Shown here piece by piece: positions 4,858-6,333 of a stretch of 12,666 nt of DNA. This DNA is from Escherichia coli (GTDB taxonomy: Bacteria; Pseudomonadota; Gammaproteobacteria; Enterobacterales; Enterobacteriaceae), in assembly GCF_003334315.1 (NCBI RefSeq), contig NZ_QOWR01000083.1. One strand, written 5' to 3'. How positions within the stretch are numbered: the first letter of the stretch is position 1; the number at the start of each line of letters is the position of its first letter. The position numbers and the translations under genes are program-made. A model generated the notes under the pieces. That model ran no database searches. It was not told the origin of the DNA and worked only from the letters and a program-made list of their open reading frames with translations.

Positions 4858-5437
4858 TCGCCAGCAGGGTTTCACATTGCTGGAGGTCATGGCGGCGCTG
4901 GCGATTTTCTCAATGCTTAGCGTGCTGGCGTTTATGATTTTTTCGCAAGCTTCCGAGTTGCATCAACGCTCACAGAAAGAAATCCAGCAGTTCAATCAGC
5001 TACAGCGCACCATCACCATTCTTGATAACGATCTCCTGCAACTGGTCGCCCGGAGGAATCGGAGTACGGACAAAATCATGGTGTTGGGTGAAGAAGCTAT
5101 TTTTACCACGCAAAGTCGCGATCCGCTGGCTCCTCTCAGTGAAGCACAAACCTTACTCACTGTTCACTGGTATCTGCGAAATCATACGCTCTACCGTGCT
5201 GTTCGTACTTCTGTGGATGGCAGGAAGGATCAACCCGCCCAGGCGATGCTGGAACATGTCGAGAGCTTTCTTCTGGAAAGTAACAGCGGGGAAAGCCAGG
5301 AACTTCCTCTCTCAGTCACGTTACATCTGCAGACTCAGCAATATGGGGGGTTACAGCGCCGTTTTGCATTACCTGAGCAGTTAGCGAGAGAAGAGTCGCC
5401 AGCTCAGACGCAGGCCGGGAATAATAACCATGAATAA
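4850..5437 (+). CDS. gspJ: T2SS minor pseudopilin GspJ
   Basis: 195-aa ORF. N-terminus [20 protein letters not shown] is a prepilin leader. 8-nt overlap with the gspI stop. Confidence 0.92.
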
Positions 5438-6333
5438 TGAACAACGCGGCGTCGCGCTGCTCATTGTACTCATGTTACTGGCGCTCATGGCTGCTCTGGC
5501 AGCAGACATGACGCTCAGTTTTCACAGCCAGCTTCACCCAGGACGTTAAAGATAACGACAGACAGACCACGTTGCAGCAGTACTGGGCACAGCCACAACA
5601 GTTGCAGCTGGAAGATGGCAATACAGTGAAGTGGCAGTTACGCGATGCCCAGCACTGTTTTAATCTCAATGCGTTAGCAAAAATCTCTGACGACCCGCTG
5701 GCTTCCCCTGATTTCCCCGCCCAGGTATTCAGTGCGCTGCTGATTAACGCCGGTATCGATCGCGGAAACACCGATGAGATCGTGCAATCAATCGCTGACT
5801 ATATTGATGTCGATGACTCACCACGCTTTCACGGCGCAGAAGATAGCTTTTACCAAAGCCAGACGCCGCCCCGGCATAGTGCCAATCAGATGCTTTTTCT
5901 GACTGGCGAATTACGTCAGATAAAAGGCATAACCGAAAACATCTATCAGCGGCTTATCCCGTATGTCTGCGTTCTCCCGACCACGGAACTTAGCATCAAT
6001 CTTAATATGCTAACGGAGAACGATATTCCGCTCTTCAGAGCGTTATTCCTCAATAACATCACGGATGCTGACGCTCGGGTCTTATTGCAAAAAAGGCCGA
6101 GGGAAGGCTGGCTAACCACGGATGCATTTCTTTACTGGGCGCAGCAGGATTTCTCCGGTGTGAAGCCACTGGTTGCTCAGGTGAAAAGGCATCTCTTTCC
6201 CTATAGCCGCTATTTTACGCTGAGTACGGAAAGTATCAGCGACGAACAATCCCAGGGATGGCAAAGCCATATTTTTTTCAACCGTAAACAGCAGAGCGCC
6301 CAAATCTATCGGCGTACGCTGCAACTCTACTAA
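5430..6333 (+). pseudogene. gspK: gspK (minor pseudopilin), disrupted: N-terminal 39 codons and the remaining ~253 codons lie in different frames
   Basis: ATG at 5430 (8-nt overlap with gspJ) encodes [39 protein letters not shown], then stops at TAA 5547-5549. The rest of the GspK-like protein (...QQYWAQPQQ...LRDAQHCFNLNAL...) is in the +1 frame, which is open only from 5512 to 6333. The span 5430-6333 is 904 nt, not a multiple of 3. Confidence 0.8.

Follow-up and report, generated by a model that had tools for sequence, protein, structure and literature searches.

The window, meaning the whole stretch of DNA that was analyzed (12,666 nt; Escherichia coli, NCBI RefSeq assembly GCF_003334315.1, contig NZ_QOWR01000083.1), holds a T2SS-alpha locus of the E. 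coli K-12 type, with the gene order gspD'-E-F-G-H-I-J-K'-L-M-O; next come bfr, bfd and chiA, encoded on the minus strand. Annotations of strain ES6 and of K-12 were mapped to the window with an offset of 701. The window was colinear with the annotated loci of ES6, SCEC020026 and K-12 MG1655, which places it in the T2SS-alpha cluster, and all of its genes other than gspK and gspD kept their K-12 lengths. The following features were assigned.

1..204, minus strand: terminal 204 bp of IS1 (IRL end), interrupting gspD; no match to ES6 gspD before 205, and 99.5% identity to the annotated IS1A of strain ES1
205..835, plus strand: 3' remnant of gspD (secretin gene), colinear with ES6 gspD from L001:906 to the stop
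845-2326, plus strand: gspE, same length as in K-12
2323-3519, plus strand: gspF, same length as in K-12
3529-3966, plus strand: gspG, same length as in K-12
3974-4483, plus strand: gspH, same length as in K-12
4480-4857, plus strand: gspI, same length as in K-12
4850-5437, plus strand: gspJ, same length as in K-12, its stop overlapping the gspK start
5430..5549, plus strand: 5' fragment of gspK in frame 0, assigned by translation; positions 1-31 of the NCBIfam T2SS_GspK profile, equal to K-12 GspK residues 1-35
5527..5536, plus strand: deletion junction with the hybrid repeat copy GCCAGCTTCA, from alignments to intact gspK and the repeats in the intact allele
5537..6333, plus strand: 3' body of gspK in frame +1, from translation, NCBIfam (profile 58-304, 189.6 bits), Pfam on the intact allele and protein alignment
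5572..6333, plus strand: mechanical ORF with a TTG start, 253 aa, from the ORF list
6348-7511, plus strand: gspL, intact (ORF list, ES6 annotation)
7508-7969, plus strand: gspM, intact (ORF list, ES6 annotation)
7969-8646, plus strand: gspO, intact (ORF list, ES6 annotation)
8675-9151, minus strand: bfr (ORF list, ES6 and K-12 annotation)
9223-9417, minus strand: bfd (ORF list, ES6 and K-12 annotation)
9586-12279, minus strand: chiA, 897 aa, intact (ORF list, ES6 and K-12 annotation)

From start to stop, gspK measured 904 nt (5430-6333). Frame 0, read from the ATG at 5430, was cut short after 39 codons by a TAA at 5547-5549; the 39-residue peptide consisted of 35 native residues (the prepilin-like leader and hydrophobic N-terminal helix) followed by four out-of-frame residues (HPGR). 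Frame +1 was closed by a TGA at 5509-5511 and open thereafter up to the normal stop (TAA, 6331-6333), while frame +2 was stop-ridden throughout; frames 0 and +1 were thus both open only in 5512-5546 (35 nt). The body in frame +1 corresponded to residues 63-327 of K-12 GspK and held the T2SSK_1st and T2SSK domains, with a split codon 62 starting at 5535 and spanning the junction. Translation and frame reading therefore bore out the original prediction of a gene split over two frames, with its N-terminal part in frame 0 and its body in +1, including the 904 nt length and the 35 nt of shared open frame. The 253-aa ORF starting at TTG 5572 is of the type that gene callers report for a disrupted gspK; it lacks the N-terminal membrane helix, and no Shine-Dalgarno-like sequence was visible upstream of its TTG when the sequence was read directly.

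Family identity was assigned with NCBIfam T2SS_GspK (NF037980), a curated equivalog profile with a cut-off of 130 bits. The 39-aa frame 0 piece matched profile positions 1-31 (34.2 bits), the frame +1 body matched positions 58-304 (189.6 bits, above the cut-off), and the intact allele matched positions 1-304 (251.3 bits); positions 32-57 were missing between the two pieces. In Pfam, the intact allele was assigned to T2SSK_1st (3.9e-31) and T2SSK (2.6e-12), families PF21687 and PF03934. The gene in the window thus matched the GspK family, but a single ORF joining the prepilin-like helix to the periplasmic domains was not found in it. Given the frame 0 stop, the body in +1 and the absent profile positions 32-57, it was therefore classed as a gspK pseudogene and not as a functional member of the family.

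The internal deletion suggested as a possible companion of the frameshift was located by alignment to intact gspK from SCEC020026 (984 nt) and K-12 MG1655 (b3332; 984 nt, 327 aa). Apart from one 80-nt gap the sequences were identical, and the missing stretch was gene nt 105-184 of the intact gene. The length of 327 aa given for K-12 GspK and the shared start were both correct, and the estimate of about 80 missing nt proved to be exactly 80. The reading frame is shifted because 80 is 2 mod 3 and not a multiple of 3. Compared with the K-12 gene, the minor pseudopilin gene of the cryptic gspC-O operon, gspK in the window has the same synteny, start and stop, and residues 1-35 and 63-327 are identical; it differs in lacking nt 105-184 and in having no single ORF, where K-12 reads 327 aa in one.

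The nearest solved structure was ETEC GspK in the GspI-GspJ-GspK pseudopilus tip complex (PDB 3CI0, E = 1e-34), and P. aeruginosa XcpX (PDB 5VTM) was also homologous (E = 9e-18). For mapping of the GspI contact, the deleted segment was aligned to 3CI0 and compared with the published contact, in which GspK W42 touches GspI E45 (PMC6211770). The deleted residues 36-61 lie in the long N-terminal helix, directly past the membrane segment, and by this alignment would include the GspI-contacting position. ETEC GspK and XcpX belong to the same family and carry the same domain pair (T2SSK_1st and T2SSK); they come from other T2SS clusters and are intact, whereas gspK in the window is broken in frame and has lost the part of the helix that aligns with the GspI contact.

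Both ends of the deletion lay in direct repeats. An imperfect 10-bp repeat (9/10 identical) occurs twice in the intact allele, as GCCAGCtTCA at nt 98-107 and as GCCAGCcTCA at nt 178-187, at a spacing of exactly 80 bp. The window kept one hybrid copy, GCCAGCTTCA at 5527-5536, with the T of the left copy followed by the shared TCA; the crossover was therefore placed in the shared TCA, which leaves the breakpoint ambiguous over these three bases, from 5533/5534 to 5536/5537. Repeats of at least 9/10 over 10 bases were found at 10 of 228,734 position/length pairs in gspK (lengths 20-300; background frequency 4e-5), and the GCCAGCtTCA/GCCAGCcTCA pair was the sole one at a spacing of 80. Repeats of this quality are rare enough that the position of the deletion endpoints on one is not attributable to chance.

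Among spontaneous deletions in E. coli, slipped-strand events at short direct repeats form a classical class. The gspK deletion resembles them in its repeat endpoints, in the single copy kept and in a deleted length equal to the repeat spacing, and nothing about it is unusual in these respects; it differs in that the two repeats do not match perfectly and a hybrid copy was kept. Judged from sequence, it bears the classical signature of a slipped-strand or short-homology deletion. Under this mechanism, the two imperfect 10-bp repeats would have mispaired, with 80 bp lost and the hybrid copy left, by replication slippage or by RecA-independent short-homology recombination. Hairpin-assisted slippage was also considered; the single-strand DNA fold of the intact region was not significantly better than that of shuffled sequence (z = -1.5), so the mechanism is proposed from the repeats alone and no hairpin is claimed. 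Read from the normal ATG, translation ends after 39 codons, and the body (residues 63-327) is stranded in frame +1 with neither a start signal nor a membrane-targeting helix.

A 50-base junction probe, unable to seed on the intact allele, was compared with 5426 complete E. coli genomes and matched one, strain ES6, which came from frog-farm sediment. Matches to at least 80% of the gspK query region were found in 3113 of the 5426, the other 3112 being without the junction, and among the matches listed, every full-length one except ES6 spanned about 80 bases more. About 42% of the 5426 genomes were without the gspK region altogether. Scans with a junction 38-mer returned no match among GTDB species representatives and no match among JGI metagenome contigs, and the 39-aa N-terminal peptide, looked up as an exact sequence, gave no match. 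Look-ups of the truncated GspD products (214 aa and 191 aa) were negative as well. The product of the 253-aa remnant ORF was recorded in 321 blocks of a large assembly collection; ten places were read among these blocks, and gspK was damaged in every one. The identical 80-bp deletion was present in two of the ten, GCA_004172665.1 and the Logan assembly of ERR1822619.

These assemblies were closely related to the window, with 1 SNP over 12,462 bp aligned for GCA_004172665.1, 3 SNPs over 12,246 bp for ES6 and 4 SNPs over 12,415 bp for ERR1822619. The three substitutions that separate ES6 from the window lie at 4793 (gspI), 11877 (chiA) and 12395 (chiA-tufA intergenic). ES6 gspK (NZ_CM184335.1, AC533T_RS01960) has the identical 904-nt sequence and junction, and RefSeq (PGAP) labels it a 'frameshifted' pseudogene; the lesion is thus already known, being flagged in RefSeq for this sister strain. 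Since the junction occurs in three other assemblies 1-4 SNPs apart, it is real and clonal, and reflects neither an assembly error nor a programmed frameshift. The window, ES6, GCA_004172665.1 and ERR1822619 are four separate assemblies of one clone that shares the lesion. We consider it almost certain that gspK of this T2SS-alpha operon is a true pseudogene made by one 80-bp deletion.

The case for an artefact of sequencing or assembly, with an intact gspK in the true genome, could be made from the rarity of the junction, which was seen in a single complete genome and was absent from the GTDB representatives and the JGI metagenomes. A homopolymer sequencing error had been raised as a possibility; this did not hold, as the lesion is a repeat-mediated deletion of 80 bp at a site without a homopolymer, and it recurs in other assemblies. 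The junction is not confined to one assembly. The three assemblies with the identical junction come from different projects, carry SNPs relative to the window and have no IS1 in gspD, and so are not the same assembly. An artefact is accordingly very improbable.

We regard as just as improbable that gspK is functional despite the split, through a programmed +1 ribosomal frameshift in 5512-5546 or a restart at TTG 5572. The two frames do overlap for 35 nt, and the 253-aa ORF keeps both Pfam domains. Intact homologues nevertheless read colinearly in a single frame, and the shift occurs in just one clone, so this is not a conserved recoding site. Even if the frame were restored by such a shift, about 27 residues of the N-terminal helix (profile 32-57) would be missing from the product, with the GspI-contacting position among them by alignment. 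A programmed frameshift gene was rejected, the junction being present in one of the 5426 complete genomes and the coding sequence being 80 nt short. Pseudopilins need the leader and the hydrophobic helix for membrane insertion and assembly; the restart product would be without both, and no Shine-Dalgarno-like sequence precedes 5572. The reverse polarity, with the short form ancestral and the 984-nt gspK derived by an 80-bp insertion or duplication, has only the formal symmetry of an indel in its favor and can be dismissed, being refuted by the profile and structure alignments: the long form occurs in >3100 genomes, in identity bands down to about 96%, and is a single ORF with a continuous GspK profile match (1-304) that aligns to ETEC GspK (3CI0) throughout the region, while the short form is out of frame.

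The pseudogene is accompanied by a second lesion. The window starts inside IS1, and the IRL end of the element abuts gspD at 205, disrupting the secretin gene. The original prediction had called gspK a second inactivated core component, and the IS1 end in 1-204 that cuts gspD agrees with this count, the loss of GspK function itself being the expected effect of its lesion. A simple insertion and an IS1-adjacent deletion both fit the gspD lesion, the left side of IS1 lying beyond the window. By comparison, gspD is intact in ES6, as it is in GCA_004172665.1 and ERR1822619, and the IS1 in gspD is private to the strain of the window. Because gspD is undamaged in the closest relatives, which share the gspK deletion, that deletion probably came first and the IS1 later, which is the most parsimonious order. 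The deletion would thus have been inherited in a small clone (ES6, GCA_004172665.1, ERR1822619 and the strain of the window), in which the strain of the window would later have gained IS1 in gspD.

Ten complete genomes (H32-H41; ES1 among them, L003:2437-3204) also had IS1 in gspD, in the same orientation and 539 bp further upstream. As the gspK deletion is absent from these genomes, their IS1 is most likely an independent insertion, and IS1 insertions in gspD appear to recur.

Other lesions of gspK were found elsewhere. Nonsense alleles C118T, C142T and C190T were present in other E. coli assemblies (L004, L005, L009, L011); each converts CAG or CAA to a stop, all lie within the first 64 codons, and all leave the same 253-aa remnant ORF. 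In LR898868.1 (L007:7140-8001), IS1 lay immediately upstream of a gspK remnant and beside gspA, with gspC to the 5' part of gspK absent, which looks like an IS1-associated loss of most of the T2SS-alpha operon. Almost every gene of the locus was fragmented in L006 (UGED01000019.1), and a few genes were split in L008 and L012, with scattered single-base indels relative to the window; these three look like error-rich assemblies, and their gspK 'frameshifts' may be artefacts rather than real alleles. The independent nonsense alleles and the IS1-linked deletion show that gspK decays repeatedly. The set of lesions (the 80-bp deletion, nonsense changes at nt 118, 142 and 190, IS1-linked deletions, and the 253-aa remnant in 321 blocks) could also be read as a sign that inactivating mutations strike the N-terminal part of T2SS-alpha gspK at a rate above that expected from neutral decay. 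We think this a long shot; if true, it would suggest that some niches select against the activity of GspK or T2SS-alpha, or alternatively that the C-terminal fragment left behind has a role.

Loss of GspK function is the expected outcome of the 80-bp deletion, because the body has no recognizable ribosome-binding site at its start and no helix for membrane insertion and assembly; the allele would yield no functional minor pseudopilin. More speculatively, about 800 nt of untranslated mRNA could lower gspL-M-O expression through polarity, despite the AAGGA ribosome-binding site that gspL has of its own at 6336-6340. According to PMC5797941, the K-12 gspC-O operon is cryptic and repressed by H-NS, with ChiA as a reported, proposed substrate of T2SS-alpha. 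In P. aeruginosa, xcpX (gspK) mutants still secreted in plate assays (PMC6211770). Given this silencing of the K-12 operon, the secretion by xcpX mutants, the roughly 42% of genomes without the gspK region and the independent gspK lesions elsewhere, the physiological cost of the lesion is probably small, and relaxed selection on a cryptic operon may be why the allele has persisted.

The decay of gspK is of an ordinary kind: a repeat-mediated deletion of 80 bp, passed down within one clone, has turned a gene of a dispensable and normally silent operon into a pseudogene. The importance of the lesion beyond the correct annotation of gspK is small, and the deletion junction offers a handy marker for tracing a small clonal lineage of E. 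coli. The K-12-type T2SS of this strain carries two independent lesions, the gspK deletion and the gspD gene cut by IS1, and the locus is a tidy case of the stepwise decay of a cryptic operon. With both genes damaged, export of ChiA through T2SS-alpha should be impossible in this strain even if H-NS silencing were lifted.
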